Shown here: in pieces, positions 3,758-37,490 of the stretch
How positions within the stretch are numbered: the first letter of the stretch is position 1
Layout of the letters: every line of letters starts with the position of its first letter
Origin: a virus
Lineage: Duplodnaviria > Heunggongvirae > Uroviricota > Caudoviricetes
IMG/VR virus record: IMGVR_UViG_2734482538_000012
DNA length: 49,248 bases
Strand: one strand, 5' to 3'
Translations under genes and position numbers: made by a program
The notes under the pieces: model-generated
What the model was told of the DNA's origin: nothing
Seen by the model: the letters and a program-made list of their open reading frames with translations, nothing else
Databases searched by the model: none

Positions 3758-3765
3758 ATTCACCC

Positions 3766-3795
3766 CACAAAAAAGCCCGCCTGAACCGGCGGGCT
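3766..3795 (-). terminator. Rho-independent terminator downstream of lom
   Basis: GC-rich inverted repeat agcccgcc-tgaacc-ggcgggct; on the minus strand it is followed by a T-run (tttttgtgggg). Lies in the lom-stf intergenic region. Confidence 0.6.
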
Positions 3796-3821
3796 GTCAT
3801 AACACTGTGTTACCTGGCTAA

Positions 3822-4628
3822 TCAGAACTTATAACCGACACCCACGATGAAACCGTCAGTGCGCCAGTCGCCACTGCCGGAGCCTTCATAAGCAATATCA
3901 ATGGCCACGGATTCGGTCGGGTTAAACTGCACGCCAGCTCCCCACGCCAGAGACGTGTTGCTGTGGCGACCGTCATCACTTCCGGTCAGCACATCGTNNN
4001 NNNNNNNNNNNNNNNNNNNNNNNNNNNNNNNNNNNNNNNNNNNNNNNNNNNNNNNNNNNNNNNNNNNNNNNNNNNNNNNNNNNNNNNNNNNNNNNNNNNN
4101 NNNNNNNNNNNNNNNNNNNNNNNNNNNNNNNNNNNNNNNNNNNNNNNNNNNNNNNNNNNNNNNNNNNNNNNNNNNNNNNNNNNNNNNNNNNNNNNNNNNN
4201 NNNNNNNNNNNNNNNNNNNNNNNNNNNNNNNNNNNNNAATCCCCGGAAAAAGTCGACACACGGCTGTAAGCCACACCCGCCATCGCATACGCGCTGAACC
4301 ATTCATTCACGCGCACAGACGGCCCCGCCATCACGCTGAACCAGCGGTTACGCACGGAATCTTCATGCCAGCGGGTATCGCTGTAACGGGTCAGCTGGCG
4401 ATTCTTGTCTCCTGCATAGCTGAATGACGTCACCAGCCCCAGCGTATCCGTAAACTCATAACGGTATTTCACGTTAATCCCGTTCAGATCATCACTGCCG
4501 GGAACGTTGGTCCGGGCATGAAGATACCCCGCGCTCAGCGTGGACTGATGTTCAGACGCCCATGCAGGCGCACCGGATACGGCCAGGCAAATGGCTGCGG
4601 ACAAAATGGCTGCACAAACTTTACGCAT
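3822..4628 (-). CDS. lom: Outer-membrane protein Lom (Ail/Lom family), interrupted by an assembly gap
   Basis: N-terminus MRKVCAAILSAAICLAVSGAPAWASEHQSTLSAGY and C-terminus ...DGFIVGVGYKF match my recollection of lambda Lom; a 240-nt N-run replaces a short internal segment. Confidence 0.8.
   Translation of the reverse strand: MRKVCAAILSAAICLAVSGAPAWASEHQSTLSAGYLHARTNVPGSDDLNGINVKYRYEFTDTLGLVTSFSYAGDKNRQLTRYSDTRWHEDSVRNRWFSVMAGPSVRVNEWFSAYAMAGVAYSRVSTFSGDXXXXXXXXXXXXXXXXXXXXXXXXXXXXXXXXXXXXXXXXXXXXXXXXXXXXXXXXXXXXXXXXXXXXXXXXXXXXXXXXXDVLTGSDDGRHSNTSLAWGAGVQFNPTESVAIDIAYEGSGSGDWRTDGFIVGVGYKF
3998..4237. other. Assembly gap (240 N) inside lom
   Basis: Run of N characters in the sequence. Confidence 0.99.
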
Positions 4629-4698
4629 AATTACCTCTCGCTTTTCTGCAATAAAAAAGGCGTCATTCCTGACGCCATTTATTGGGGTTATAAATATT

Positions 4699-7600
4699 TC
4701 AACGAATACTGATGCCGGAAGCCGCTTTTTTGGTCACAATCACCGTACAGTCGGTGATATTGCCTGCCCCCTGATTGCCTTTCTGGAAAATCTTAAACTC
4801 CAGAGTGACGCTACCACCACCACTAGGCATATCAATAACTGCACTGTAACTACCGGGAATGGCACCTTTAGTTTCTCTGGATGCGATTAATACGCCGTTT
4901 TTGCGAACTTCAAAACCATAACCCGTGTATCGCGTGCCTCCCGGGTTATTTCCGCTCCCCGGATCGTCATACGCTATACCGTTAAAAATAATGGGCGGAA
5001 TAATAATCTGGCGGTCAAAGTTATGATCATCGCTGATGGTGACTGTAACCGTACCGTCTGGTGTTTCCGTGTTACCCCACGTACCGACTTTTTTCGGGAA
5101 GGCTTTTGATACAGCTTTAACGAAATCCCCTCTGACCTGGGTCGCCTCCAGCATGCCCTTAATCGTACAGTTCTGGTTAATCGTGACATTGTTGAGCGTT
5201 CCTGAGTTCGCATTCACACTACCACTGATATCCGCATTTTTAGCGGTCAGCTTTCCGTCTGATGTCAGGGAAAATACCGGAGGACTGCCACCGCTGGTAA
5301 TGGCGGGGGCTGTCAGGCGCTTCAGGAACACGTCGTTCATGAATATCTGGTTGCCCTGCGCCACAAACATCGGCGTTTCATTCCCGTTTGCCGGGTCAAT
5401 AAACGCGATACGATTGGCGGCAACCAGAAACTGGCTCAGCTTGCCTTCCTCCGTGTCCTCCATGCTGAGGCCAATACCCGCGACATAATGTTTGCCGTCT
5501 TTGGTCTGCTCAATTTTGACGCCCCACATCGCATTCCATTTATCGTTAGCGTCCTTCCACTCTTTCGAAAACTCATCCAGTCTGCTGGCGTTATCCTCCG
5601 TCAGATCAACTTTTTCCAGCAGCTCTTTACCGAGATGGGATTCGGTTATCTTGCCTTTGAAAAAATCCAGGTAACCTTCCGCATCATCGCTCGCCCGACC
5701 GACGGCCTCCACGAATGCCGATTTGCCAACGGTGTTCACACTGCGGATATAAAAGTAATAATCATGGCCCGGTTTGATATTGATACTGGCGGCTATCCAG
5801 TACAGCCCCGCGCCAAGGTAGCGGGCTGTGGTTTCAACCTGCCTGATATCGGTAATCCGCGTTTCCGAGAACCAGAACTCAAACTGTACCGTCGGATCAT
5901 AAACCGCAAGATGCGGCGTGGCAGTTATCTGAAAATAGCCCGGCGTCAGCTCAATCCGCGACGGTGCTACCGGTGCGGCAATCCTGAACGATACCGACGC
6001 CGGATCGCCCTGCTGTCCCCAGGCATTTACCGCCCGGACTGTCAGCGTGTACCGTCCCAGCGCCAGTTGCGTGAAGCGGTATGTGGTTTCCGTCGTCCGG
6101 GCCGTGCTGACCNNNNNNNNNNNNNNNNNNNNNNNNNNNNNNNNNNNNNNNNNNNNNNNNNNNNNNNNNNNNNNNNNNNNNNNNNNNNNNNNNNNNNNNN
6201 NNNNNNNNNNNNNNNNNNNNNNNNNNNNNNNNNNNNNNNNNNNNNNNNNNNNNNNNNNNNNNNNNNNNNNNNNNNNNNNNNNNNNNNNNNNNNNNNNNNN
6301 NNNNNNNNNNNNNNNNNNNNNNNNNNNNNNNNNNNNNNNNNNNNNNNNNNNNNNNNNNNNNNNNNNNNNNNNNNNNNNNNNNNNNNNNNNNNNNNNNNNN
6401 NNNNNNNNNNNNNNNNNNNNNNNNNNNNNNGCCGTCAGGAACACGGCTCACTTTCACCTTCACGCCGTCGGTGACGGACTGAACCTCCACGCTGACCGGA
6501 TTGCCACTTCCGTCAACCAGGCTTATCAGCATGGTACCGGAGGATGGCAGCGTGATTTCACGGTCGAGCGTCAGCGTCCGGGTCTGGCTGTTTACCGCCA
6601 GCACGCGCCCGCCGATGCTGATACCCGCATAGTCATCATCACAGATTTCAATGACATCGCCCGGCACATGGCGAAGCCCTTCTGCGCCCACGCTGAAGTC
6701 CACGGTCTGCGTTTCCAGCAGTTCTGTTTTAATCAGCCACAGCCCGGCGCGGTGTGCCTGCCCCCGGCTGGTACAGCCAAAAGCATCCATCTTCGTGACG
6801 TTACGACCGTAACGGGCAATGGCCTGCGTATCCTCCACAAGCTCTGTCGCCGTCTCCCAGCCGTTATCCGGGTCAATCCAGTTCACCTCAACGGCATTAT
6901 GGCGGTCTTTCAGGGCGCTGAAGCTGTAGCGGAACGGCGCGCCATCATCCGGCATCACCACATTACTGCGGTTATAGGTCCACACCTTATCCGACGGTCG
7001 GTCCTGCACGAACGTCAGCGTCTGCCCGTTCCATACCGGCATACAGCGCATCGCCGAGCAGAAATCACTGAGCACATCCCACGCCTTGCGCTGTGTGGTC
7101 AGGTACGCATTACAGGTGATGCGCGGCTCCGTGCCGCCAAAGCCGTCCGGCACTGACTGGTCGCAGTACTGGCCGATGACATACAGCGCCCATTTGTCCA
7201 CATCCGCCGCACCAAGACGTTTCCCCATGCCGTAGCGCGGGTGGGTCAGCATATCCCACAGACACCAGGCCATGTTGTTGCTGTATGCTGGTTTTAACGT
7301 TCCGTCCCAGATACCGCTGTATTGTCGCGTCTGCGGGTTATAGTTCGACGGCACCTGCAGAATGCGCCCGCGAAGATGATAATTACGANNNNNNNNNNNN
7401 NNNNNNNNNNNNNNNNNNNNNNNNNNNNNNNNNNNNNNNNNNNNNNNNNNNNNNNNNNNNNNNNNNNNNNNNNNNNNNNNNNNNNNNNNNNNNNNNNNNN
7501 NNNNNNNNNNNNNNNNNNNNNNNNNNNNNNNNNNNNNNNNNNNNNNNNNNNNNNNNNNNNNNNNNNNNNNNNNNNNNNNNNNNNNNNNNNNNNNNNNNNN

Positions 7601-21265: not shown

Positions 21266-22652
21266 TGATTTCCATCAGCATTACACTCTGATTTTTTAAT
21301 TCATCGATCACTTCCTCTGGACGGGAATCCTGATCGATAAATTTCAACGCCTGCAACACCCGAACCGCATCAATCTGACGTATATCACCGCCCTGACGCA
21401 ATGACTGAACAGCCAGCGCGGAGGATGAGTCAAACACCTGGGCAGATACATCCAGTTCAGTGCGCACATCCACATTGCCACCGCAACTCTCTCCGATCCA
21501 TTCCGCCATTATCTGGAGAATATTATCGAGGGCATCTTCGAGGGAGTTCGCCATTGTATAAAGCGGCGAGTTTTCCTGCATTCGCTCTTCATTAGTCTGA
21601 TCAACAGATTTGGTGGATGTATTTTCAGCACGCAGAAGTTTAGCGCCGGCATGACGCATCTGATTTTCCAGCTTCTCAAGTGATGTTTCGCCAGATTCTA
21701 TCGCTGCGCCACTATGTTCAACATATTCGAGGCCATTTTTTGTTCTGTCCTCAAAAATCGTAGCGGTGGATGCACCAACCGTCAGTTCTTCATTCCTGTC
21801 CAGCCCGTAGGCCACCAGCAATGGAACGCGGGCAACATGAAGAATATTGTCCTGCTCGCTCTGGCTTTGCCAGTGCTTGATATTCAGCAAGCCAAGATTA
21901 AGCAATGGCGGTGTACCACGCATAAATCCTGTTTTCTTCGTGTACAGTGTTACCAGAGGAATATCATCACGGCTGGTATTCCATGACTCATGAAGCGTCC
22001 AGACAGATTCGCCATTAGTGCCTTCGCTACGTCGATAAATTTCAACTCGACGGGGCATAATATGGCGGATCTGCTCCACCTTCTTCTGCCCGAAATCATC
22101 ACCATCAATAATGATGACCTCTTTTATACGCAAATCAGTGAGAACAACTTTCCCTTTTTCAACTTTCGATTTCCATCCAATAACCTGGCGTGGATTCAGC
22201 ATCGTAACGTACGGACGACCACCGGTCGCGTTTTCATCGGCTTTTGTCCGAATCTCTTTCATATCCGTTCGTGGATAGTCCACCAGCGCATGTGCCACAC
22301 CATACTGAAATGCGAGGCTGAAAAATTGCTGCGCCCACACATCCAGTCGGCTCCCCTCCATGTCGATATTTTCTGCATATTCCCTGATTTTTGCCGGCGT
22401 TTCCTCACTCAATACTGTCGGCTCTGCAAATATGCGCCCAATATTTTGCTTGATGCTTTCTTCATACACAGGAAGTAGCGTAGCCACAGACAGGCGTTTT
22501 TTATAAGCGTCTTCATCTTCGTTAGGCCATTTTGGGAGATAATTTTCCCCCTGCCTGCGCATTTCAAGCGTACCGCCCATCAGTGCGTCGTTAATATCCC
22601 ACGCCTCCAGCATATCGTTATAGTCGAGGTTGGGTGTTGATATATCAGCCAT
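21246..22652 (-). CDS. Portal protein
   Basis: 468 aa ORF immediately downstream of the large terminase gene and overlapping the head morphogenesis gene; size and order typical of portal proteins. Confidence 0.75.
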   Translation of the reverse strand: MADISTPNLDYNDMLEAWDINDALMGGTLEMRRQGENYLPKWPNEDEDAYKKRLSVATLLPVYEESIKQNIGRIFAEPTVLSEETPAKIREYAENIDMEGSRLDVWAQQFFSLAFQYGVAHALVDYPRTDMKEIRTKADENATGGRPYVTMLNPRQVIGWKSKVEKGKVVLTDLRIKEVIIIDGDDFGQKKVEQIRHIMPRRVEIYRRSEGTNGESVWTLHESWNTSRDDIPLVTLYTKKTGFMRGTPPLLNLGLLNIKHWQSQSEQDNILHVARVPLLVAYGLDRNEELTVGASTATIFEDRTKNGLEYVEHSGAAIESGETSLEKLENQMRHAGAKLLRAENTSTKSVDQTNEERMQENSPLYTMANSLEDALDNILQIMAEWIGESCGGNVDVRTELDVSAQVFDSSSALAVQSLRQGGDIRQIDAVRVLQALKFIDQDSRPEEVIDELKNQSVMLMEINDANRE

Positions 22653-22654
22653 AA

Positions 22655-23965
22655 TTAAATCCGAAGTGATGTGACTCTTCCGGTCGGTTTGACAATAGGG
22701 AATTGCTTAACGATGAAATAACCTCCGGCATCATTCGGGTGATCATTGCCAGATTTTTTATCAGGCTCCCCCTTCTCATCCCAGACCTGTTGCTCCAGAG
22801 ATTCGGCATATAACGGGCAACGCTTCACATTAACTTTATAGCGACGCTCACCATTGGCATTGCAGAACATTGCATTCATTGAGTTAACGCGATCTTTTAC
22901 TGGCGGGTTCGAGCTGTTCACCACAACGTTAAAACCAGCCTGCTTAAGCTGGGCTATATCCGTCGTACTTGCGTTACTTGATTTTCTGGAATCCCCGGAA
23001 GCATCTGGATAAATATAAATTTCCCTCACTTTCCGGTAATCATTCCCATCATACAGCCAGAAGCGTTCTTTAATGATGCGGATCATATCCGGCGTATCGT
23101 AGGCATTGATGATTTCAGTTACCGCACATGGAAGCCCCAAACGCAGCACATGGACGATTCCCGCCATCTTTCCAACGTTAAAATCCATCCCAATATAAAT
23201 CGGCTCCCCTGGCTGCTCCACTTCTTCGCAATTATTCAGTTTCCGGTCAAACTGATGGTAAACAGTACCACTTGTCAGGTTAGTAAACTGTCCTCGAAGA
23301 TAGGCTTTAATCAGCTCTGGAGGGTATGATTCAAGAAGCGAAGGAATGTAATCTGCTGGCAGGTTCTTTTCATTATCGAAAGTAGATGCCTGCACCAGAC
23401 CATACAGTGAGGCCAGCTCTGTTTTTTCACGCACGGCTTTAACAAACTGCTCGTAGACAAATTTGAATCCTTCCGGCGTGGTTGTAACGTCAATACCGTT
23501 GCGAAGTCCATCAATCTTATAACGCATACGTGCAATTATCTTGCGCCACGCCGTTCTGGCTTTTTCCTTCGGCAAAATGTCCAGTTCATCCACCAACGCA
23601 TTACCAATTTTGAAACCGACGATCGTTTGTGGCTTCTCCATCGATCTGCAGATAGTGGTTCCCCGATACTGGCGTCCGTAATAAAAGTGAACCTCTTTAT
23701 TTCCCTCATTAATTTTTACGTTCAATCCCCAGTCAGCAGCAACTTCTTCCACTGTAGGGTAAAAAATATCGCGAATTTGGGGATACGTTGGCGCAAAATA
23801 TCCCTGATTTATACCTGGATGCTCCCAAATCCCCTTGCATATGCCGCCACACCCAACCCATGTTTTGCCCGAGCCAAAACCAGCAATATAGGCTTTAAAT
23901 TTATGGGGCATTGAAAGAAATCGCGCCTGAGGCACATTAAGCGTCGGAGAGATCATCTTCATCAC
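22655..23965 (-). CDS. Terminase large subunit
   Basis: 436 aa; Walker-A-like YIAGFGSGKTW near the N-terminus; acidic nuclease-type C-terminal half; followed by the portal gene. Confidence 0.85.
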   Translation of the reverse strand: MMKMISPTLNVPQARFLSMPHKFKAYIAGFGSGKTWVGCGGICKGIWEHPGINQGYFAPTYPQIRDIFYPTVEEVAADWGLNVKINEGNKEVHFYYGRQYRGTTICRSMEKPQTIVGFKIGNALVDELDILPKEKARTAWRKIIARMRYKIDGLRNGIDVTTTPEGFKFVYEQFVKAVREKTELASLYGLVQASTFDNEKNLPADYIPSLLESYPPELIKAYLRGQFTNLTSGTVYHQFDRKLNNCEEVEQPGEPIYIGMDFNVGKMAGIVHVLRLGLPCAVTEIINAYDTPDMIRIIKERFWLYDGNDYRKVREIYIYPDASGDSRKSSNASTTDIAQLKQAGFNVVVNSSNPPVKDRVNSMNAMFCNANGERRYKVNVKRCPLYAESLEQQVWDEKGEPDKKSGNDHPNDAGGYFIVKQFPIVKPTGRVTSLRI

Positions 23966-25031
23966 TCCTTACTCTGGCATCAACCACATTAATATTGATC
24001 GCCACAGGCTGGGGATGTTCATTATCTTCCACCGTTTCGATCTCTTTGCGCAGCTTCTGGTTTTCCATTCTGCGCCGTTCAATTTCCAGTTCCCGTAGCC
24101 GCTTATCTGCACATAAAGCCCCGCCAGCAGAAAACAAACGCAACAATTCACGCCGGGCGGCAGCCTTATCCTCCAGCAGGATCTCAACGCCGAATTTTCC
24201 GAATTTTGCCCCTGCATATAATTGCCGCGCATCCCCATCAAGCAGAGTGGTATCAGCCATATAAAGCTGTCCCGTTCCCTCACCGCAGCACTTCGGGCAG
24301 TCCGGATTGGGTATGGCGTTATCAACAAAGCCGAGGCCTCCATATTCCGGTTCGGGTTTGCCATCTCTGGAAGCCTGCGCCGCTGCCTTGTCGAATTCTG
24401 CTATATCGCGCCACTGGTAGAGATGATTCTCGCCCCAGCAATAACGGCAGTTAACACGGCGAAATTGTGCAAGCTGATTGGGGTCGGCCAGGACAATAGC
24501 CATCAACTGACTCACTAGTAAATCCAGGTCTGCGGTATAGCGTTTCTGGTACTGATTGCGGAAGTAGCTGATAGCGCGAAAAACCCTGGCATTTCTAAGC
24601 ATACGACTGGCGTTGCTGTTAGCTGTCGCACCTTGCCCCTCATAACCGGCTAGTCGGTACGCCTCTGTCGGCTTTTTACCCTGAGCAACAAGCATCGCAA
24701 ACTTAGCCTGCTGGTCAGAAATGCCGAATTCATCGGGACAGAACGAAAATTCCTCCGCGTCGCCCTCATTCAGGCCCGCATCGAATACTGGCTTTTTTTC
24801 CTGAGATTTTTCGTTCCGCTTTTGTGCAGTCTGCGCAGATTTTTTCTGCGCACTTTTTTGCGCAGTTTTGCACATTTCTGTCTGCGCATTTTTCGGAGTT
24901 TTTTTGATGTAACGACGGGCTGTTGCGTAATTCAGTCCCCTTGCTTCACACCATGCCACCGGAGATATACCGGAGCGGGTGTATTCAGCAATATACTCCT
25001 GCTGCAACGCCCCCCAGTCCGGTCTGCTCAT
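23937..25031 (-). CDS. Putative terminase small subunit / DNA-recognition protein (HTH plus Cys-rich region)
   Basis: 364 aa, immediately upstream of and overlapping the large terminase gene; N-terminal HTH-like segment (ISPVAWCEARGLNYATARRYI); CxxC...CxxC cluster (CRYCWGE...CPKCCGEG). Larger than a typical small subunit, so the function is tentative. Confidence 0.5.
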   Translation of the reverse strand: MSRPDWGALQQEYIAEYTRSGISPVAWCEARGLNYATARRYIKKTPKNAQTEMCKTAQKSAQKKSAQTAQKRNEKSQEKKPVFDAGLNEGDAEEFSFCPDEFGISDQQAKFAMLVAQGKKPTEAYRLAGYEGQGATANSNASRMLRNARVFRAISYFRNQYQKRYTADLDLLVSQLMAIVLADPNQLAQFRRVNCRYCWGENHLYQWRDIAEFDKAAAQASRDGKPEPEYGGLGFVDNAIPNPDCPKCCGEGTGQLYMADTTLLDGDARQLYAGAKFGKFGVEILLEDKAAARRELLRLFSAGGALCADKRLRELEIERRRMENQKLRKEIETVEDNEHPQPVAININVVDARVRSDEDDLSDA

Positions 25032-25034
25032 CAG

Positions 25035-25286
25035 TTAGTCCTGATTTTTATCCACCCTGAGTAGTTCGCGCAGAGCAAAGGCATCCCCTTTTCTGGCAAG
25101 CTTAAACAATGCCGCTCGTAACTCGGCTTCACCTTTCGCTCTGCCCTTACGGATGGCCGCATAAAAATCTGTCATTGCTTCCCGATTTTCTTTCAGTCGG
25201 TTCAGATCAACATCCAGAACGTCAGCGATTTGTTGTGCAGTCATCCGGCACGCTGCCAGAGACTCGACTTTCGAATACGGAATCAT
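25035..25286 (-). CDS. Small putative DNA-binding protein (83 aa)
   Basis: ORF upstream of the terminase genes; HTH-like segment MTAQQIADVLDVDLNRLKENR; overlaps the 3' end of the upstream gene. Confidence 0.35.
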   Translation of the reverse strand: MIPYSKVESLAACRMTAQQIADVLDVDLNRLKENREAMTDFYAAIRKGRAKGEAELRAALFKLARKGDAFALRELLRVDKNQD

Positions 25287-26172
25287 TTGTCACCCCCATT
25301 GATATGCAGGGTGTCTTCTTCCTGTATTTTTCGTGAAGGATTTTTACTGCAGCGTTGTTCCAGGTGACCTGATGGTGAATGCGTTTATGACTGGCACCCA
25401 TAAGTGAGATTTTTACGCACGACGGCGCATACATGACGGAGTAAAAACTTTTAACGTAGGTTCCGGAATCCAGATACAGCTCGGTCATTCCGCCGCTGTT
25501 TTTCTGCGTCTGTTTCTGCCCTAACTGGACAGCACCGATCGTCATAAACAATTCACCACAGCGACCGAGATTCGTGTACGTATTCACATCCTCGTTAATG
25601 CGCCCCATGAATGAGAACGGTCGATCAACCGAACAGATAAAGCTGTTCATTGCCTTGCGTTTCACCCACGAAGCATGGCCGCCATTGTCACCAAGAAAAT
25701 CCCCGCCCTGCGACATAGCGATGGAAAGAGCAGGTATTGATTCGTAGTACGCAAGCATTTCAGAAAGGATCTCATCCAGTTTCCTTATCGGGAAATAGGC
25801 CTGGTCATAGTTGCGATCCACCCGAAACTGGAACTCGTGATAATCATCATCGAGCTGAATGAAGTATTTACACCCGACCAGTTTTGCCTGGTCGAAACAG
25901 GCATTACGGGCGTAAAAAATTGAGCGGCGGTCACTAAAATTATCGGCTTCGTCAAAACGACTAGCAATATCGGCTTTGGAAAATACCAGCACCTGTTCAC
26001 CAAATTCAGCCATGTACTGATGCCGTGTCTTATCTTCATCATCAACAACGATAAAAATTTTCCCGGTATAGCCAGCACGACGCAACGTCCGGTAAGTCAG
26101 AACTTTGTCCGGTCGCCCGTGAGTCAGAATAAAGGCGCAAAAATCATCACGCATATTCCTCCTCCCCGCCAT
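25222..26172 (-). CDS. Hypothetical protein with a DxD-type motif (possible GT-A-like nucleotide-sugar transferase fold), partner of the ParB-like gene
   Basis: 316 aa ORF overlapping the stop of the upstream ParB-like gene; hydrophobic strand followed by acidic cluster (IFIVVDDEDK) and YFIQLDDDYHEF; function not established from sequence. Confidence 0.4.
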   Translation of the reverse strand: MAGRRNMRDDFCAFILTHGRPDKVLTYRTLRRAGYTGKIFIVVDDEDKTRHQYMAEFGEQVLVFSKADIASRFDEADNFSDRRSIFYARNACFDQAKLVGCKYFIQLDDDYHEFQFRVDRNYDQAYFPIRKLDEILSEMLAYYESIPALSIAMSQGGDFLGDNGGHASWVKRKAMNSFICSVDRPFSFMGRINEDVNTYTNLGRCGELFMTIGAVQLGQKQTQKNSGGMTELYLDSGTYVKSFYSVMYAPSCVKISLMGASHKRIHHQVTWNNAAVKILHEKYRKKTPCISMGVTNDSVFESRVSGSVPDDCTTNR

Positions 26173-26935
26173 GCATGATCTCCACCATGCGCTGCGTCAT
26201 TCGGACAAATCCATTTTCAATAGCCTGCTGATAATCAATGATCACCAGCGCCGACTCCTCGAAAAGGCACTGAATTTCAGCGGGGGCATGAGCGTAATAG
26301 TCCGCAATTCTGCTGAAATTAAACACCGTGTGACGTTCTGCTGCACACAGGAGGAATTTCTCAATATCAGGATCAAGGGACGCCGAACGTATCCGGCTGA
26401 TCAGCTCCTGAGTTTTCGTATCGTCGTACAGTTCACTGATATCCGGTTTACCGCCTGACGGCTCATAAACAGGCGTATCAATTTTCGTCGTATACGGCTC
26501 CTCCTCATTTCCTGTACCGGGCAAAACATCCGTCAACAGTTCATCAATTTCTGCCGGGATGAAGCCTGTCAGGGAGACATCAAAATCAGCATTGATTAGG
26601 TCCGACAGCTCCATCCGCAACAGATCTTCATCCCAGCCAGCATTCATCGGCAGGCGATTATCTGCCAGGCGGTACGCCTTTTTCTGCTCATCCGTCAGGC
26701 CAGACAGAACAATGACCGGAACAGAATCCATTTTGAGCATTTCAGCCGCCATAACACGACCGTGACCCGCAATAATTTCGCCCTTTTCGTCAATCAGCAC
26801 CGGATTAGTCCAGCCGAATTGCTTAATACTTTCTACCAGTTGTGCCACCTGCTCAGTACTGTGCGTCCTGGCGTTGTGCGCATACGGTGACAATTCTTGT
26901 AATGGGCGATAGACTATCTTTAATTTCTCGCTCAT
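26147..26935 (-). CDS. ParB-like nuclease domain protein
   Basis: 262 aa; N-terminal ParB/Srx-type motif (YAHNARTHSTEQVAQLVESIKQFGWTNPVLIDEKGEIIAGHGRVMAA). Confidence 0.75.
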   Translation of the reverse strand: MSEKLKIVYRPLQELSPYAHNARTHSTEQVAQLVESIKQFGWTNPVLIDEKGEIIAGHGRVMAAEMLKMDSVPVIVLSGLTDEQKKAYRLADNRLPMNAGWDEDLLRMELSDLINADFDVSLTGFIPAEIDELLTDVLPGTGNEEEPYTTKIDTPVYEPSGGKPDISELYDDTKTQELISRIRSASLDPDIEKFLLCAAERHTVFNFSRIADYYAHAPAEIQCLFEESALVIIDYQQAIENGFVRMTQRMVEIMHGGEEEYA

Positions 26936-27072
26936 ACAGCCTTGCTTTATGAATAAAACGCACCCCAGCAGCCAGTGCTACTGGGGGCGGAGGTGTTGCT
27001 GGTAAAGTTAGGTATTGGATCAATGAGTGAGTCAACATAATATTAAACTCACAATTATAAATCAGCCATATA

Positions 27073-28530
27073 TTAGGAGCGCCAAAAAAAACCTGAAAAC
27101 AATATAATAACAGGATAAATTTCAAGGCGACCAAGAATCATAGCTATGCACATTAAATATTTTGCAATGTCATTAAGCACTCCGAATGACGATGCAGTAG
27201 CCCCAAAACCTAATCCCATATTATTAATACATGCAGCCACTGTTGCAAATGATGTAAGAAAATCATATCCCATACCATTTAACACCAGTATAAAAAACAC
27301 CGTGAAGAGAGTATAAAGAAAAAAGAAACTCCATACAGACCTCATTACACGATCTGTAACTATCTTCCCTCCTACATTTACACTCAACAACGCTCTGGGA
27401 TGAGAAAGCTGATTTATCTCGTGTTTGCTTTGTTTGAAAAGTATAAGAAATCGAAGTGACTTAATTCCACCACAGGTTGAACCTATACATCCCCCAAAGA
27501 AACTTGACAACAGCAAAAACACTATCGTGTGCGTGGGCCAGTTTGCATAATCCTGCGTAGCTAAACCATTATCAGTGAGCATGGAGCTGGCAAGAAAAAA
27601 CGAATGAATAAAACTTCCATGCAAGTCATACATACCTATATGCCAGACCTGGAAAGAGGTAACAATGATCACCCCTAAGGCTATTAACAGAAAGAAACGA
27701 AGTTCAATATCTCTGATTAAAGGTTTTATCGTTTTTCTGCTAATAACAATATACCAAAGAGTGAAGTTGAAAGCCGATAGCAGGGAAAAAGAACCAGCCA
27801 CCAGCTCAACCAAATAGTTATTAAAATATCCGATACTCTCGCTATGAGTTGAGAAACCACCAAGCGAAACTGTGGAAATCCCGTGACAAATAGCATCAAA
27901 CAAAGGCATTCCTGCAAGTCTATAACAGACAATACAAGCAATACCTAATAAAGAATAAGTTATCCACAGTGTCCGTGACGTATCGGCCAGGCGGGGAGTG
28001 AGTTTGTCATCCTTAAATGGCCCCGGCATTTCTGACTGATAAAGCTTTGCACCACCAATACCCAATAATGGCAATACTGCAACCGCCAGAACAATAACTC
28101 CTAAACCACCTATAAAATTTAACTGTGACCGATAGTACAAATATGCCCGAGGTAATGAACTAACATCATCAATTACAGTTGCTCCTGTTGTTGTTATTCC
28201 AGAAACCCCTTCAAACAGAGCATCAATGAACGTTAAATTAAGTTCTGAGTCAATCCATAAAGGGAATGCACTAATAACAGAAAACAAAATCCAAAACATT
28301 ACAATTATAATAAACCCATCACGGGTACGTAATTGAATGCCAGATTTCTTAGTTGTATACCACGCTCCGCCACCAATGCAAAAAAATATAACGAAAGTTA
28401 TAAAGAAAACGAACAGGCTTTTTTCTTTATAAAACAATGCTACAACCATTGGTGGCAACATTGAAAGACTATAGAGCCAAACCAGGAACCCACACATATG
28501 AGTAACAACTCTTACATGAGATGTATTCAT
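27073..28530 (-). CDS. trkG: Trk-system potassium uptake protein TrkG (TrkH/KtrB family)
   Basis: Multi-pass membrane protein with repeated selectivity-filter-like glycine motifs (GITTTG, GLGVIV, SLGGFST, TCGGIKS); start MNTSHVRVVTHMCGFLVW at 28530 matches my recollection of K-12 Rac TrkG; markedly AT-rich relative to its flanks. Confidence 0.85.
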   Translation of the reverse strand: MNTSHVRVVTHMCGFLVWLYSLSMLPPMVVALFYKEKSLFVFFITFVIFFCIGGGAWYTTKKSGIQLRTRDGFIIIVMFWILFSVISAFPLWIDSELNLTFIDALFEGVSGITTTGATVIDDVSSLPRAYLYYRSQLNFIGGLGVIVLAVAVLPLLGIGGAKLYQSEMPGPFKDDKLTPRLADTSRTLWITYSLLGIACIVCYRLAGMPLFDAICHGISTVSLGGFSTHSESIGYFNNYLVELVAGSFSLLSAFNFTLWYIVISRKTIKPLIRDIELRFFLLIALGVIIVTSFQVWHIGMYDLHGSFIHSFFLASSMLTDNGLATQDYANWPTHTIVFLLLSSFFGGCIGSTCGGIKSLRFLILFKQSKHEINQLSHPRALLSVNVGGKIVTDRVMRSVWSFFFLYTLFTVFFILVLNGMGYDFLTSFATVAACINNMGLGFGATASSFGVLNDIAKYLMCIAMILGRLEIYPVIILFSGFFWRS

Positions 28531-28667
28531 ATCTAAATATTCTTTCAATTATAACCACCTTGCTGCAATATTATGATTATACTGTATAAAATTTAACTCC
28601 TCTTAGATCTTACTTCACTGTTCCTTATGAAACAATCATCAAAATGAATCATATTGTAGTTAAGATT

Positions 28668-29132
28668 TTACTTTAAACACTGCTCGGTTATGTATTGCTG
28701 AGCACCTTCAAGTTGGGCCTGCATCATTACCAGTCGTTCCCGGAGGGTGAAATAATCCCGTTCAGCGGTGTCTGCCAGTCGGGGGGAGGCTGCATTATCC
28801 ACGCCGGAGGCGGTGGTGGCTTCACGCACTGACTGACAGACTGCTTTGATGTGCAACCGACGACGACCAGCGGCAACATCATCACGCAGAGCATCATTTT
28901 CAGCTTTCGCATCAGCTAACTCCTTCGTGTATTTTGCATCGAGCGCAGCAACATCACGCTGACGCATCTGCATGTCAGTAATTGCCGCGTTCGCCAGCTT
29001 CAGTTCTCTGGCATTTTTGTCGCGCTGGGCTTTGTAGGTAATGGCGTTATCACGGTAATGATTAACAGCCCATGACAGGCAGACGATGATGCAGATAACC
29101 AGAGCGGAGATAATCGCGGTTACTCTGTTCAT
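28668..29132 (-). CDS. rzpR: Spanin, inner-membrane subunit (Rz)
   Basis: Track ORF 28668-29144; likely start [17 protein letters not shown] (N-terminal transmembrane segment) followed by a coiled-coil periplasmic region; directly downstream of the endolysin gene. Confidence 0.8.
28727..28912 (-). CDS. rzoR: Spanin, outer-membrane lipoprotein subunit (Rz1), embedded in Rz
   Basis: 61 aa ORF in the +1 frame entirely inside Rz; lipobox LVVVGC; proline-rich ([18 protein letters not shown]). Confidence 0.75.
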
Positions 29133-29626
29133 TGCTGACCCCACAAACAGATTTCACGCTCAATCTCACGACGAGTCATGAGACCTTTCCATTGCTTACC
29201 GCCAGCATATGTCCAGCGACGTAGCTGATCACATGCGCCTTTGATATCGCCCTGGTTTATTTTGCGAAGAAGCGTCGATGTTCTGAAATTGCCAGCGCCC
29301 ACGTTGTAAACGAATGAGTAAAGAGCGCCGCGCGTTGTTTCCGGTATATCGACTTTGATGTACGGGTTAATTTGTCTGGCGACAGTGGCAAGGTCTTTAT
29401 TCAAGAGTGTTTTGCATTCTGCTTTGGTATACGTTTTACCGAGCATGATGTCTTTTCCTGTATGCCCGTGACATACAGTCCATACACCAACAATATCTTT
29501 GTATGGTATGTAGCTGACACCTTCCAGACCATCGTTACCACTTGGGCCAGTGATTAACACTGATGCTATAGCAATTGCTCCGCCACCAATAGCAGCAGCA
29601 ACGACTTTTCGTAATGATGGAGGCAT
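29129..29626 (-). CDS. SAR endolysin (lysozyme, phage 21 R type)
   Basis: 165 aa; N-terminal Gly/Ala-rich signal-anchor-release segment ([16 protein letters not shown]); lysozyme core similar to phage 21 R as I recall it. Confidence 0.85.
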
Positions 29627-29841
29627 TATTCACCTCTCGCAGCCTTGCGCTTATCTTCTTTAATCTTGAAATAAAGGTTTGTCAGGTACGTCAGCAGGCC
29701 AAATACCAGACTACCCAGCACACCGATTGCAGCCCACTGTGACGGAGTTACTCTATCGAGCAACTGTAAAAACCAGTAGCCAGCACTGCCTGCGGAGGTG
29801 CCGTAGGCAATGCCTGTTGAAATTTTGTCCATGGATTTCAT
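29626..29841 (-). CDS. Pinholin (phage 21 S type) with dual-start motif
   Basis: Track ORF 29626-29898; [31 protein letters not shown]...[15 protein letters not shown] matches the S21 pinholin as I recall it; Met1-Lys-Ser-Met4 dual start gives 71 and 68 aa products. Confidence 0.8.
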
Positions 29842-30092
29842 AGCCTCACCTCCGCACGGAACGGATGGCATAGTTATTATGTGTAGGCTTTCAGACACAT
29901 CAATCAGAGCCTTAATTGATATATATGCTGGAGACGATGCAATATAAAAAGCTCGCCGTAGCGAGCTAATAAAATGTATTTCTCTGATATTATGTTTATT
30001 TGTATTAGCTCAGACTTGACATCACAGGTTTCGTATATAGAACATCATCAAATCTGTCAGTTTGCTATGAATGAGATATAGTAATTGAAGAG

Positions 30093-30488
30093 CTAACCTC
30101 GCATGTCAAAGCCAGATTTCTGAAAATCTCTGTAGACTTCCGGATTGTTGAAGGCCGGAAATTTGGCTTTATGAGCTGCGGACTTTATCGCTTCGCAATA
30201 GGCTTTATCACCGTTACTGGTAGATATTTTTAACGCCGTGCCATCCTGAGAGAATTCCATATGCAACCTGCATTTTTTCCCTTTCCAGTTATGCGGCTCA
30301 TCAAGTTTGGCATTAATTGCAGCTCTGATTCCCCGCGCTTGCGCCCCCCATTCATCCTGATCATCCCAGCGTCCTGAACTGCAACTACCTGTAGCAGTAG
30401 TTTTGTGGCAATCTGAAGGGTGTAAAGGTGTGCATCCCGCAACAAAACCGACCCAAAAAGTCAACATAACGATTTTCTTTAATCCCAC
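30093..30488 (-). CDS. Lipoprotein with TolA C-terminal (domain III)-like region
   Basis: 131 aa; signal peptide with lipobox (FVAGC); C-terminal ...KGKKCRLHMEFSQDGTALKISTSNGDKAYCEAIKSAAHKAKFPAFNNPEVYRDFQ is a paralogue of the adjacent gene and resembles TolA domain III. Confidence 0.6.
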   Translation of the reverse strand: MGLKKIVMLTFWVGFVAGCTPLHPSDCHKTTATGSCSSGRWDDQDEWGAQARGIRAAINAKLDEPHNWKGKKCRLHMEFSQDGTALKISTSNGDKAYCEAIKSAAHKAKFPAFNNPEVYRDFQKSGFDMRG

Positions 30489-30638: not shown

Positions 30639-31067
30639 TCAGGGTTTAAAATCCAGCACCCCATTTTGAAATACTTTATATACTTCCGGCGAAGGGGGGG
30701 CAGGTATATCAGCATTCTTTATCGCATTCATCGCTTCACGACATAAATCGAGGTCTCCACTTTCTCTTTTAACCTCCAGTAGAAGGCCATTCGGGGCCAT
30801 ATGCATTCTCAGTGTACACTCTTTTCCTGAATACTTACTCGCATCCCCGAACTGTTTTTCGATGGCGCTCTTGATTTGATGGGCATACAGACGGATATCC
30901 TCACTAACATCAGAAGTACGTTCAGATGAACTCACATACTGTGTCTCTATTGCTTTATCGGAGTAATATGATGTACGGTCATGATAATTTGTCGATACAG
31001 CATCAGTGCACCCGATAATAATCCCACTAATAATCAACGTAAGAATTGATGCGCTACGAAAACCCAT
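30639..31067 (-). CDS. Lipoprotein with TolA C-terminal (domain III)-like region
   Basis: 142 aa; lipobox (IIGC); C-terminal YAHQIKSAIEKQFGDASKYSGKECTLRMHMAPNGLLLEVKRESGDLDLCREAMNAIKNADIPAPPSPEVYKVFQNGVLDFKP closely parallels the C-terminus of E. coli TolA as I recall it. Confidence 0.7.
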   Translation of the reverse strand: MGFRSASILTLIISGIIIGCTDAVSTNYHDRTSYYSDKAIETQYVSSSERTSDVSEDIRLYAHQIKSAIEKQFGDASKYSGKECTLRMHMAPNGLLLEVKRESGDLDLCREAMNAIKNADIPAPPSPEVYKVFQNGVLDFKP

Positions 31068-32111: not shown

Positions 32112-32654
32112 TCAAGCCATTTTCTCAGCAAATGATTCACGCATGGGAATATATAGGGCATACTCAGCAACAGCTAACCAATTAGCAATCCGTTTTTCGC
32201 ATGTGCTAAAACACCACTCTGGGTGTGCATCATTTAGCAATTCAGCCATTTTGCGCTTAGTCATCCCCCGCCCTTCATAGCGTTGCCGGAGAATGCAAAT
32301 CAATCCTGGATGCTCTGCCAGCACCTCACTTATGACTCGATCAATACATAACGCCTCTGCATCAGTACAATGCGCCAGCCAGCTCTTTTGCTTGCCGTTG
32401 ATCATCTCTCGCAAAAACGCTTCCAGCTCAGCTTTCTCTATTCCCGCTTTTTTCATTCTGCGCAGGGCTTCATTAATGGCTGTTTTCGTCAGTTTTTTGG
32501 ATGCCAACAACTGATTGAACATATTCCCTGACCTGCCACCGCCAATATACGACCAGCGCCCCCACATACGTAGTTTTCCCTGAATCCAGACACTTTCCAG
32601 CGTGGTGAGGCGAAGGTGTTCTCCGCTTTTTCCTGTATTCGTTGGGTAAATCAT
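32112..32654 (-). CDS. Putative late-gene antitermination protein Q
   Basis: 180 aa ORF last in the nin-region operon and immediately upstream of the terminator/late region and lysis cassette; assignment mainly by position. Confidence 0.5.
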   Translation of the reverse strand: MIYPTNTGKSGEHLRLTTLESVWIQGKLRMWGRWSYIGGGRSGNMFNQLLASKKLTKTAINEALRRMKKAGIEKAELEAFLREMINGKQKSWLAHCTDAEALCIDRVISEVLAEHPGLICILRQRYEGRGMTKRKMAELLNDAHPEWCFSTCEKRIANWLAVAEYALYIPMRESFAEKMA

Positions 32655-35312: not shown

Positions 35313-36314
35313 TTAGTAATCTGCGTGTTTCGCACTTTTCAGAAATGCTTTCATATTTTCATTAGGTCGCTCAATTTCGAAGTTACTTCCATATAACTCT
35401 TGTAATTTTGGCCATAACTTACTTAATAACCCTCTCCTGCGATAAAATGGATGTATCCAAACGGTAGATAGGTACGGAGAATTTGCATTTGAATTGTTTA
35501 TTGTGACCAGCCCAACTAAACATTGTCGATAACCACTATTATCCATTGATTGTATTTCTTCGACGAATGGATACGCGATTACATCAGTCCAACCATGATC
35601 GGTTGTATCCCATTGCATTCCGTCATGACATTCCTTCGACTGATAGCGGCGTAAAGCTACACACGCGAGCTTTTGCCAATCTGGAGAATTAATTGTGATC
35701 TCTTCATCGTATGACGCGCCTATTGGAGCGGGTATTGGTCTGATTAATCCAGCATGGCATTCATCATAGAACTTCATGTTTCCCTCAGAAACGTTGTGTA
35801 CGTTGGGTTGCTCCATGTGTGCGCCATTCAAAAATAGCTCTGATAGTAGTGTATCTACACTGTAATCTTTATTGATTATTGTCGGCTTAGAGTTTTTCTT
35901 ATTAAGGCCGCGAGTAACGATTTTTTGATCAATGTTAACAACATGGAATAATCCGTCGGGGAGGCTAGCGAACCACGATGGGGCATCGGACCAGAATAGC
36001 ATGCCTTTTGTACTTCTTAAGAGTTTAATTAAGTTAATACAAGCTTCTTCACTAGTCTTGCCGTTGATGCGAAGTATGTTAGGACTAAAGTAATATTCAT
36101 CCATATCAGGGAATGCAGCTTCGCAAAACTCCTGTACATAATTTAGCACCTGGATTCTACAGAGATCATCATAGCTGGTAATAACTAAGGGGGTATCTTC
36201 ATTACTATTATGATTATCAATAATGCAATCTATAGCGAGACTTACTGCTTTGCGTATCACTTCAGTTGAATCTAACGACTCTAAAAATTTTGTCTTTCGT
36301 GTGCGAATATCCAT
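35313..36314 (-). CDS. Hypothetical protein with C-terminal GNAT-like (acetyltransferase-like) region
   Basis: 333 aa ORF 15 nt downstream of the HEPN-motif gene; C-terminal segment CLVGLVTINN...STVWIHPFYRRRGLLSKLWPKLQELYG resembles the beta4-alpha3 acetyl-CoA-binding motif of GNAT enzymes; AT-rich codon usage. Confidence 0.5.
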   Translation of the reverse strand: MDIRTRKTKFLESLDSTEVIRKAVSLAIDCIIDNHNSNEDTPLVITSYDDLCRIQVLNYVQEFCEAAFPDMDEYYFSPNILRINGKTSEEACINLIKLLRSTKGMLFWSDAPSWFASLPDGLFHVVNIDQKIVTRGLNKKNSKPTIINKDYSVDTLLSELFLNGAHMEQPNVHNVSEGNMKFYDECHAGLIRPIPAPIGASYDEEITINSPDWQKLACVALRRYQSKECHDGMQWDTTDHGWTDVIAYPFVEEIQSMDNSGYRQCLVGLVTINNSNANSPYLSTVWIHPFYRRRGLLSKLWPKLQELYGSNFEIERPNENMKAFLKSAKHADY

Positions 36315-36329
36315 GTATGACCTGCGCTA

Positions 36330-37352
36330 TTAAAATTCATGAATGAACGGTTTGTCATCTGGTTGCAAAATGGTGGTTTTATTCGTTGCTACATTTAAAC
36401 TGTTGTAGAGCATAATTGCCAGGTTCGATGCATTTTCAATCAGCGTTTCAAGATCCTGGTCTGTAATCACTACGAGGTTCCCTTCTTTATCCTTTCCACC
36501 ACGATGCACTAAGTGATTTCGATTGAGGGTTGCCAATTCAATAGCTTCTATCGGACAGTCTTTTTGTACTTTTATATCGAATGTAGCTTCATAGCGGTCG
36601 ATTACCTTTTTAGTGCTATGCCAGCTTGCACTGATCAAGTGTTCCTTGATTGACCTGATTAGCTCTCCCCTAATTTTCTCGATGGGTTCACCCTTGAAAG
36701 GCAACGCAGCAATATCTTTGCTTACTTTAAATTCAGTCTTACCTTTTTCTATACAATTGGCTATGTAGACATCATCTTTCTCTATAGAATTAATGAATAG
36801 CTCAACATAAAGCGTTTCCAAAGCTGTAATAACATTCGTGTAGAGCAAACTAAGCAAGTGGTTTTTTTGCTGTTGTTCAGTTTTATCTTTTGCAAGTTTT
36901 TTTATTTTATCGATATTATCAATGAATTTTAAATACGGATTACCGGAAGACGTTACAGCGTCGTAGATATCATCATCGTACCAATCATCTATATTATTTG
37001 AGTTTCCAGACCAGTCAAAACATTGTGTTTGTAATTCATCTACTAATTCCTCAATATACTCAGATTTAACATATTGACCGAAGATGGATTGTAGTTCTTC
37101 GCTCGCATCATACGGCCCGCCATATATGTAAGCATAGCCACCTTCTCTACTTTCATACGGACAAGCATTTGCCGGATCTTCAAAGTTTTCAAAGAACCAG
37201 TTTTTCATTACTTCGAGTTGATCTTTTTTGCTTATGTATTTTAAAGATTTTAGTGGAACTTTCTTTCCATTAACCTCGAAAACAATTTTCACGATGTAAC
37301 GCTCCCTTGTATCAATTGCGCAACTATTATACCACAGCGAAATACAGGGCAT
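36330..37352 (-). CDS. Hypothetical protein with HEPN-type R-x4-H motif
   Basis: Track ORF 36330-37421; likely start at ATG 37352 (MPCISLWYN) with an AAGGAGG Shine-Dalgarno 6 nt upstream; canonical RNxxxH motif (LNRNHLVHRGG, encoded about 36504-36521) in a predicted helical C-terminal region; AT-rich. Confidence 0.5.
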   Translation of the reverse strand: MPCISLWYNSCAIDTRERYIVKIVFEVNGKKVPLKSLKYISKKDQLEVMKNWFFENFEDPANACPYESREGGYAYIYGGPYDASEELQSIFGQYVKSEYIEELVDELQTQCFDWSGNSNNIDDWYDDDIYDAVTSSGNPYLKFIDNIDKIKKLAKDKTEQQQKNHLLSLLYTNVITALETLYVELFINSIEKDDVYIANCIEKGKTEFKVSKDIAALPFKGEPIEKIRGELIRSIKEHLISASWHSTKKVIDRYEATFDIKVQKDCPIEAIELATLNRNHLVHRGGKDKEGNLVVITDQDLETLIENASNLAIMLYNSLNVATNKTTILQPDDKPFIHEF

Positions 37353-37490
37353 AACCTGCCTCCTTAAACTAACATACCATGAGCCAGCAATGTCCGCTAT
37401 TGGCACAAAGCGGACAACCACGCTAGCTCTCCCCTGTGCCAGAAAAATGTCAATTTACATATGAACTAATGCTCTTTGATCTAGTAACGT

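Follow-up and report, generated by a model that had tools for sequence, protein, structure and literature searches.

Glycosylation of phage DNA is known only from cases in which a hydroxymethyl-pyrimidine is produced beforehand. In a survey of phage glycosyltransferases (GTs) ∼65% of the contigs lacked such precursor neighbours, and ParB and terminase genes were listed among the genes adjoining the GTs without an explanation (Pyle et al. 2024, bioRxiv 10.1101/2023.12.21.572611). Experimental proof that ParB-like proteins serve as helpers of DNA-modifying enzymes is very recent and was obtained for a dioxygenase: phage ParB-like proteins activate their cognate thymine dioxygenases (5mYOX176/ParB176) specifically on double-stranded DNA (dsDNA) (O'Toole et al., PNAS 2026, PMC13229309), and in 5mYOX-ParB multimer models the enzyme sits at the position of ParB's DNA-binding domain (PMC13229309). 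Fusions of the ParB N-terminal domain to DNA methyltransferases have also been surveyed in phages and prophages (Kaljevic et al., PNAS 2025, PMC12704722). Here we describe a gene pair that combines the themes of the TAGT glycosyltransferase and of the ParB-assisted enzyme without the expected precursor pathway, a pairing that is functionally undescribed. It lies in a stretch of 49,248 nucleotides from a virus of the Caudoviricetes (IMG/VR record IMGVR_UViG_2734482538_000012; this whole stretch is called the window in the following), which is a Rac-like lambdoid prophage of E. coli. The pair consists of a gene for a ParB-like protein, the intact form of K-12 YnaK (open reading frame (ORF) 26147..26935, 262 amino acids (aa) plus stop), and a gene for a GT of the TAGT family (25222..26154, 310 aa plus stop), both on the minus strand together with their neighbours. 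We tentatively favour, at somewhat less than even confidence, a reading in which the pair constitutes a DNA glycosyltransferase of two subunits that is assisted by ParB and expressed late, plays an accessory role of the anti-restriction type and uses an acceptor that is not the usual one. That the two proteins operate as one system is much more secure than that their target is DNA.

Judged from its sequence, the second protein is a GT-A-fold glycosyltransferase of the TAGT family with apparently intact catalytic residues. The Pfam profile TAGT (TET-associated glycosyltransferase, PF20691) was matched over positions 4–205 of 205 with 118.9 bits against a cut-off of 27.5 (E 3.7e-34), the match ending at aa 222 of the protein, and PHROG 842 was matched with E 7.5e-104; PHROGs are remote-homology clusters, and this one bears the label T2/T6 beta-glucosyl-HMC-alpha-glucosyltransferase. 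Family scores of this strength rule out chance ORFs. The Prokaryotic Genome Annotation Pipeline (PGAP) names the protein 'GREB1-related protein'. An earlier note, made from the letters of this DNA alone, had compared two acidic clusters, IFIVVDDEDK and IQLDDDYHEF, with the DxD motifs of GT-A-fold transferases and had proposed profile and structure searches of the protein. Both clusters are present, and the searches (Pfam, PHROG 842, BFVD) placed the protein in the TAGT GT-A family as the comparison had anticipated: alignments of bacterial and archaeal homologues show R14, D102–D104 and E188–D189 to be invariant from E. coli to a halovirus, and D38 and D41 of IFIVVDDEDK are conserved as well. 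Because the invariant residues fit the signature R...DDD...ED(Y/F), we take IQLDDDYHEF to be the catalytic DxD motif; this signature is the motif of phage GT-A enzymes that glycosylate 5-hydroxymethylcytosine (5hmC) in DNA (bioRxiv 10.1101/2023.12.21.572611). Foldseek gave TAGT proteins as top matches among the viral models of BFVD and only generic GT-A neighbours in the PDB, for example SpsA and glycogenin, at E ∼1e-3. In the AlphaFold2 (AF2) monomer model the GT-A core (aa 1–150) reaches a predicted local distance difference test score (pLDDT) of ∼90, with a mean of 66.7 for the whole GT and values below 50 in the C-terminal half; IFIVVDDEDK comes after the second β-strand of this model, presumably the usual nucleotide contact site of GT-A enzymes. 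No match to the GT was found in the PDB by sequence at E up to 1, in NCBIfam or among the defence-system models of PADLOC. The Pfam scan returned TAGT only, which agrees with the earlier statement that the partner of the ParB-like protein has neither a methyltransferase nor a PAPS-reductase domain, and it found no methyltransferase family in either protein of the pair.

Beyond the Pfam TAGT domain the GT carries a basic C-terminal extension (aa 223–285, 25300..25488, minus strand, isoelectric point (pI) 9.6), in which T224, Y227, G231, T232, K235, S236, F237, Y238, P244, S245, R258, H260 and H261 are invariant. The AF2 pLDDT of this extension is 30–55 although it is conserved. A further tail of ∼21–25 aa (25222..25299, up to residue 310) is found in the E. 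coli GT; it is missing from homologues of 285–290 aa and overlaps the start of the small ORF that follows.

The ParB-like protein is composed of a ParB/Srx N-terminal domain, a helical linker and an acidic C-terminal domain (CTD) of ∼110 aa. The assignment to the ParB/Srx type, made in the earlier note, was borne out by Pfam ParB_N (PF02195) with 29.3 bits against a gathering cut-off of 26.3 and by PHROG 620 with E 1.7e-90. The N-terminal domain and the linker (aa 1–140, 26516..26935, minus strand) contain the nucleotide-binding motifs Box I (N21-x-R23), Box II (G57-x-x-R60) and Box III (D92-N93), which are kept in 66–75 of the 75–76 family members having this domain (G57 75/75, R60 72/75, D92 68/76, N93 70/76). 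Box II and Box III align with GERR and EN of Spo0J, and the best PDB sequence matches are Spo0J/ParB; the domain probably binds a nucleoside triphosphate (NTP). AF2 predicts the region of aa 1–140 with a pLDDT of ∼66–88 over most of its length, the mean of the whole monomer being 64. Full-length homologues with 33–64% identity occur in Salmonella and Pantoea prophages, Lactobacillus phage phi jlb1, Nocardia phage NTR1 and halovirus HHTV-2, and the distant members of our aligned set, to which L. delbrueckii phage c5 does not belong, are 33–42% identical to the window protein. The same 140 aa are 30–53% identical to the N-termini of phage DNA methyltransferases and match PADLOC MTase_II (E 1.5e-38) and phrog_498 (E 6e-51), with the match confined to this part; ParB-like domains are indeed fused to DNA methyltransferases in many phages, as had been remarked before. 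A partition ParB of a ParABS system was considered and rejected: there is no helix-turn-helix (HTH) family match, no ParA is annotated in the prophage, and TIGR00180 scores 38.1 against a cut-off of 58.45, with a match that covers the N-terminal domain only.

The CTD region (aa 141–262, 26150..26515, minus strand, pI 4.4) contains the motif YTxKIxxPxYEP, after which a helical domain follows. No Pfam model or PDB sequence matches this domain, and its profile gave matches at chance level only in the PDB (armadillo repeats, RNase E). The family comprises 1195 clusters at 50% identity, in all of which the domain is C-terminal; P155, Y157, R201, A211, Y214, D234, A238 and G242 are invariant in 84 of 84 members, and Y148/T149 nearly so. 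A domain scan of longer family proteins (316–433 aa) yielded ParB_N only. In the AF2 monomer the CTD has a pLDDT of 31–75 and the Tyr/Thr-Pro segment is predicted to be disordered.

The association of the two genes is strict. A CTD homologue lies directly upstream of the GT in all 91 loci that were fetched with the GT, and in loci fetched with the CTD that have room downstream the GT follows directly in 77 of 77 viral and 77 of 77 species-representative genomic cases; overall, adjacency was found in 245 of 245 testable loci. The partners are full length in 221 of 248 cases, each of these with a ParB N-domain (221/221), and CTD-only partners of 126–153 aa are present in 18 loci, 17 of which have no ParB N-domain nearby. 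The motif YTxKIxxPxYEP is retained in these minimal partners too. It is thus the CTD, and not the ParB N-domain, that constantly accompanies the GT. Overlapping genes for both homologues in the same order are found in Salmonella, Pantoea and other prophages and in Lactobacillus phage phi jlb1, phage c5, Nocardia phage NTR1 and haloarchaeal virus HHTV-2; the hosts of the genomic loci include Bacteroidota, Firmicutes, several classes of Proteobacteria, Chlorobi, Verrucomicrobia, Kiritimatiellae, Acidobacteria, Melainabacteria and bacteria of the candidate phyla radiation (CPR). The analysis goes beyond the earlier note in placing the pair on the minus strand, in finding a better start for the GT, in recognizing the CTD as the constant partner and in showing a widespread module rather than a peculiarity of Rac. 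The two families are complementary in charge (median pI 9.06 for the GT, 4.77 for the partner), and the regions that AF2 cannot fold in the monomers are conserved ones, namely the CTD and the C-terminal half of the GT, as expected of parts that fold on each other; a physical interaction is what we infer from this and from the strict co-occurrence of the overlapping genes.

CTD-only partners were also seen in other surroundings. In 191-kb Vibrio phages (L011, 5459..5878; L171, L172, Vibrio phage pv27, OR413349.1) the GT is accompanied by a CTD-only protein of 139 aa, and the pair adjoins helicase and primase genes, not a terminase. The genome annotation of pv27 lists a PurZ-like '2-aminooxy adenylosuccinate synthetase', thymidylate synthase and DHFR, and a separate heptose-adenylyltransferase-like gene. 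In CTD-only locus L137 two enzyme-like ORFs lie upstream (4114..4950 and 2723..4114), coding for a Cys-rich protein of 278 aa and a protein of 463 aa, both without a Pfam match, and in L164 a 271-aa ORF (2669..3484) directly upstream of the CTD-only gene resembles an N6/N4 DNA methyltransferase by eye.

The two genes also appear to be coupled in translation. The partner had been described as an overlapping ORF of 316 aa; the ORF and the overlap exist as stated, but the first ATG at 26172 (25222..26172) is not the better start. The ATG at 26154, giving 310 aa, is preferred: a direct reading of the junction (26147..26165, minus strand) places the Shine-Dalgarno sequence GGAGGAGG, followed by AAT, ahead of this ATG, which together with the stop codon of the ParB-like gene forms ATGCGTGA, an overlap of 8 nt. 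PGAP likewise calls the GT at 310 aa in an identical prophage (100% across the 3-kb stretch compared). In relatives the two genes usually overlap or abut, with gaps mostly between −3 and −22 nt.

The pair normally opens the packaging operon. Of 62 non-redundant viral loci whose downstream sequence is long enough, at least 49 (at least 79%) have a terminase-like gene no more than 3.5 kb away, and several unrelated families are represented among these terminases; phage c5 has the pair as ORF1/ORF2, starting 90 nt from the cos end. In the window the minus strand carries, in this order, a gene for a Q-like antiterminator (32112..32654), the genes of the lysis cassette (28668..29898), trkG for a K+ transporter (27073..28548), the ParB-like gene, the GT gene, a small ORF (25035..25286), terS (23937..25031), terL (22655..23965) and the genes for portal, head and tail; at the opposite end of the prophage are recET and the integrase gene. 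A Pfam scan of 22655..25031 gave Terminase_2, Terminase_6N and Terminase_6C. The location just upstream of the terminase genes, as described in the earlier note, is right insofar as terS and terL follow downstream, but the small ORF intervenes between the GT gene and terS. This ORF encodes 83 aa (69 aa in PGAP), matches PHROG 309 with E 8e-23 and has no match in NCBIfam; it resembles the HTH of terminase small subunits and is probably a packaging gene. Its position is kept in enterobacterial relatives, and an analogous small TerS-like ORF lies 3′ of the GT gene in 36 of 86 non-redundant loci.

In the interval between trkG and the ParB-like gene we found a terminator-like hairpin (26963..26986, minus strand) with a 10-bp stem, 7 GC pairs and a T-rich tail (TGCGTTTTAT). 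No promoter-like site was found between this hairpin and the start of the ParB-like gene. With a terminator upstream and no promoter, expression of the pair most likely depends entirely on late transcription under antitermination, which takes in the packaging genes as well; it stands downstream of the Q-like and lysis genes on the same strand and directly upstream of terS/terL. A moron expressed in the lysogen was rejected on the same grounds.

The mechanism that we propose runs as follows. The acidic CTD would bind the basic GT, probably through the subfamily-specific C-terminal extension of the latter, to give an obligate complex. The ParB N-domain would bind an NTP and dimerize, and could thereby give the enzyme access to duplex DNA, a step that we propose on the model of the ParB-dependent activation of phage thymine dioxygenases on dsDNA and of the ParB-methyltransferase fusions; possibly it forms a sliding clamp in which the GT takes the place of ParB's DNA-binding domain. 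The GT would then move a sugar from a nucleotide sugar to replicated phage DNA shortly before packaging, and the sugar-marked virion DNA may withstand restriction, or other defences directed at DNA, when it enters the next host. DNA as the target is suggested by the TAGT lineage, which is one of DNA-base glycosyltransferases, by the basic character of the GT family and by the N-terminal module that the partner has in common with DNA methyltransferase fusions.

Several points weigh against this proposal. The Pfam scan revealed no HTH or other recognizable DNA-binding domain in the ParB-like protein, and the CTD is acidic. As ∼7% of the pairs have no ParB N-domain, this domain is not required for the core activity, and the contact between CTD and GT is a presumption. 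In the 5mYOX precedent, mutation of the residues that bind the NTP changed little, and a stable complex could not be trapped (PMC13229309). In the literature we found no paper on the ParB-like/GT pair and no report of a DNA modification in the phages that carry it. Further objections concern the acceptor. Canonical DNA bases have no hydroxyl group, and to our knowledge every characterized relative of this GT lineage glycosylates a hydroxyl, be it on 5hmC, 5-hydroxymethyluracil (5hmU) or a sugar, or on Ser/Thr in the case of GREB1. Moreover, the PGAP annotation of the identical prophage together with a scan of the unnamed ORFs revealed no TET/JBP dioxygenase, no thymidylate-synthase-like hydroxymethylase and no C5-methyltransferase in the window, and none of these precursor enzymes was found in the complete genomes of phi jlb1 (38 kb) and c5 (32 kb).

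The lack of a hydroxymethyl-pyrimidine source in the window, phi jlb1 and c5 also means that the dioxygenase association from which TAGT takes its name is not seen here, and we expect the acceptor of the GT to be something other than 5hmC or 5hmU. Classical TAGT activity would require hydroxymethyl-pyrimidine DNA from an unrecognized or unlinked enzyme, or the invading DNA of a T-even-type phage that a prophage excludes by hyper-glycosylation. Membership in Pfam TAGT and in PHROG 842, with its label of a T2/T6 second glucosyltransferase, would fit such an activity, as would the ParB genes that accompany 5mYOX pathways, and the action of prophage GTs on invading phage DNA has been raised before (bioRxiv 10.1101/2023.12.21.572611). 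However, no dioxygenase or hydroxymethylase was found in the window or in the two small complete phage genomes, and neither part of a 5hmC pathway (dCMP hydroxymethylase, alpha-glucosyltransferase) is annotated in the window. A tblastn search with the GT at E 1e-5 gave 36 phage records and no T-even phage among them, so that the GT is not a close relative of the T2/T6 enzyme. The pair is also present in c5, whose annotation has no integrase, in the 191-kb Vibrio phages and in a halovirus, and in the window it stands behind a terminator in the late operon and not in a position expressed in the lysogen. We therefore consider classical activity quite improbable. A bolder version of the DNA proposal, in which a GT driven by a ParB clamp glycosylates a canonical base or another universal group of DNA and which would be a new chemical class of post-replicative modification, seems doubtful to us.

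The main rival to a DNA target is protein glycosylation: the GT could modify its own partner at the invariant Tyr/Thr of YTxKIxxPxYEP in the manner of glycogenin, or else a packaging or virion protein encoded in the same operon. The Tyr/Thr-Pro segment that precedes the CTD might serve either for docking or as the site of sugar attachment, which keeps this alternative in play, and of the conceivable protein acceptors the partner itself is the most economical. The animal TAGT relative GREB1 O-GlcNAcylates a protein (PMC7968844), and the self-glucosylating glycogenin is among the PDB fold matches of the GT. Y157 and P155 are found in 84 of 84 members and Y148/T149 nearly so, in a segment that AF2 predicts to be disordered and that the CTD-only partners keep. 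A self-encoded acceptor would moreover explain both the strict co-occurrence and the conservation over unrelated hosts, canonical DNA offers no hydroxyl acceptor, and the pair adjoins virion and packaging genes. On the other hand, the ParB N-module is common to DNA methyltransferase fusions and activators of DNA dioxygenases, the GT family is basic as is usual for nucleic-acid enzymes, the invariant motif may equally well serve docking, and there is no known role for a glycosylated ParB-like protein. In sum we regard protein glycosylation as rather unlikely.

The distribution of the module bears on a further candidate, the glycosylation of the cell envelope or of a small molecule, as in serotype conversion or superinfection exclusion by prophage TarP or Gtr. 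The distant GT homologues of the aligned set (c5 again not included) are 41–49% identical to the window GT; since identities of 40–47% extend across viruses of hosts with unrelated envelopes, the substrate is likely to be universal or self-encoded. For an envelope enzyme the latter figure is difficult to explain, because Gram-negative, Gram-positive, actinobacterial and haloarchaeal envelopes have no common acceptor. The partner is furthermore a cytosolic, acidic ParB-like protein, the pair occupies a late-operon position, and no Pfam membrane-protein or Gtr-type family was matched. Still, the GT-A fold is common to envelope glycosyltransferases, related phage GT-A enzymes have TarP as their first neighbour in the PDB (bioRxiv 10.1101/2023.12.21.572611), and a nucleotidyltransferase of the ADP-heptose type is linked to the pair in some loci. 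Weighing these points, we give envelope glycosylation very little credence.

The nucleotidyltransferase just mentioned was observed in marine viral contigs (L112, 5302..6288; L114, 1338..2291; L117, L143, L156, L168), where an ORF of ∼315–330 aa is inserted between the ParB-like gene and the GT gene. This ORF, present in 8 non-redundant loci, joins a histidine phosphatase (Pfam E 7e-40) to a cytidylyltransferase-like domain, and its C-terminal part matches a heptose-1-phosphate adenylyltransferase PHROG. The insert suggests that some phages supply their own activated sugar.

The intact region is frequent in E. coli. A 3-kb query spanning trkG to terS was covered to at least 80% in 857 of 5426 complete E. 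coli genomes, and part of it was matched in 1647. As the earlier note had stated, Rac of K-12 keeps only fragments of the region: trkG and the first 87 codons of the ParB-like gene (ynaK) remain, and a deletion then joins ynaK to ydaY. Within one genus of L. delbrueckii phages the pair is intact (c5), split (phiLdb) or deleted (Ld25A): in phiLdb (L175, 848..1713) the GT is divided into two coding sequences, and in Ld25A (L174, 90..515) a deletion has reduced the pair to a fused ParB-N/GT-C remnant of 141 aa. The module is dispensable for growth, and its loss or breakage in Ld25A, phiLdb and K-12 Rac fits an accessory role such as the evasion of host defences. An essential packaging factor was considered and rejected, as some phages whose genomes were deposited as complete have lost the pair or carry it in split form. 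In locus L001 PGAP labels the ParB-like gene as a 258-nt ynaK pseudogene 'missing C-terminus' (22179..22436, corresponding to window positions 26678..26935); the 262-aa ORF is nevertheless intact, and the pseudogene call seems to stem from the K-12 remnant as the reference.

Some other features of the prophage were noted in passing. The gene trkG is a host-type K+ transporter gene that lies as a moron within the late operon, with its own terminator-like hairpin, and the pair is present without trkG in Salmonella and Pantoea relatives. Just upstream of the lysis genes, two minus-strand ORFs (30093..30488 and 30639..31067) contain TolA C-terminal domains (Pfam E 1.3e-14 and 2.4e-23, respectively) and could act as decoys for TolA-dependent phages or colicins. 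Two adjacent ORFs, also on the minus strand (35313..36314, 333 aa; 36330..37421, 363 aa), have weak matches only, to GNAT acetyltransferase (E 9e-4) and to the HEPN/RES N-terminal domain 1 (E 2e-4). The two possibly form a pair of the defence or toxin type, and one of them is frameshifted in strain EC2.

The module is very common, being carried by about one-sixth or more of the complete E. coli genomes in Rac-like prophages, by phages and prophages of many bacterial phyla and by a haloarchaeal virus. If DNA is indeed the target, ordinary temperate coliphages would bear a new DNA mark, which would matter for the evasion of restriction, for artefacts in sequencing and for phage engineering. If the target is a protein, one branch of the family of 'DNA' GTs would act on proteins and have a ParB-like acceptor or adaptor of its own. 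In either case, identification of the substrate would assign a function to about two-thirds of the phage GT-A contigs that were left unexplained earlier, and to the K-12 remnant ynaK.

How does the pair compare with described systems? With the partition proteins Spo0J, Noc and KorB the ParB-like protein has in common the fold of the ParB/Srx N-domain and the motifs GxxR and (E/D)N, but it differs from them in having no HTH, in scoring below the TIGR00180 cut-off and in belonging to a prophage without ParA. The IbrAB pair combines the ParB-like IbrB with the PAPS-reductase-like IbrA, whereas the only Pfam family of the GT is TAGT. In the DpdB-DpdA system a ParB-like ATPase is required by a DNA transglycosylase that inserts 7-deazaguanine; the pair resembles this system, and DndB, in that a ParB-like NTPase would serve a neighbouring DNA-modifying enzyme, and differs in the chemistry of the effector. 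The ParB-methyltransferase fusions are close homologues over the N-terminal ∼140 aa (30–53%; phrog_498, PADLOC MTase_II). However, the effector is here a separate polypeptide that is joined through a dedicated CTD, and it would transfer a sugar instead of a methyl group.

A close likeness in domain layout is to the 5mYOX-ParB systems, whose ParB proteins also consist of an NTP-binding N-terminal domain, a helical and unstructured linker and a CTD without a DNA-binding domain, are encoded beside a post-replicative DNA-modifying enzyme and pair with it in a cognate manner. The dependent dioxygenases carry a C-terminal extension, as the GT does, and terminase genes are frequent neighbours. In contrast, the enzyme is here a TAGT GT and not an iron/2-oxoglutarate (Fe/2OG) dioxygenase, and no such dioxygenase was found in the window; activation, which was shown for 5mYOX, is presumed in our case.

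On the side of the glycosyltransferases, GREB1 and the kinetoplastid base-J glucosyltransferase (JGT) belong to the same lineage as the window GT. Both lack a ParB-like partner; GREB1 glycosylates a protein (ER-alpha), and JGT needs 5hmU made by JBP. The phage TAGT/GT-A DNA glycosyltransferases and the second glucosyltransferase of T2/T6 resemble the window GT in Pfam family (PF20691), in the signature R...DDD...ED and in the GT-A fold. The enzymes of Pyle et al., unlike the present one, have as their substrate 5hmC, 5hmU or glucosyl-5hmC, which a neighbouring TET/5mYOX enzyme or a thymidylate-synthase-like hydroxymethylase provides, and were expressed without a ParB partner as described (bioRxiv 10.1101/2023.12.21.572611). 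A conserved basic C-terminal extension of ∼60 aa, an obligate CTD partner and a gene neighbourhood free of hydroxymethylating enzymes are together peculiar to the GT subfamily described here.

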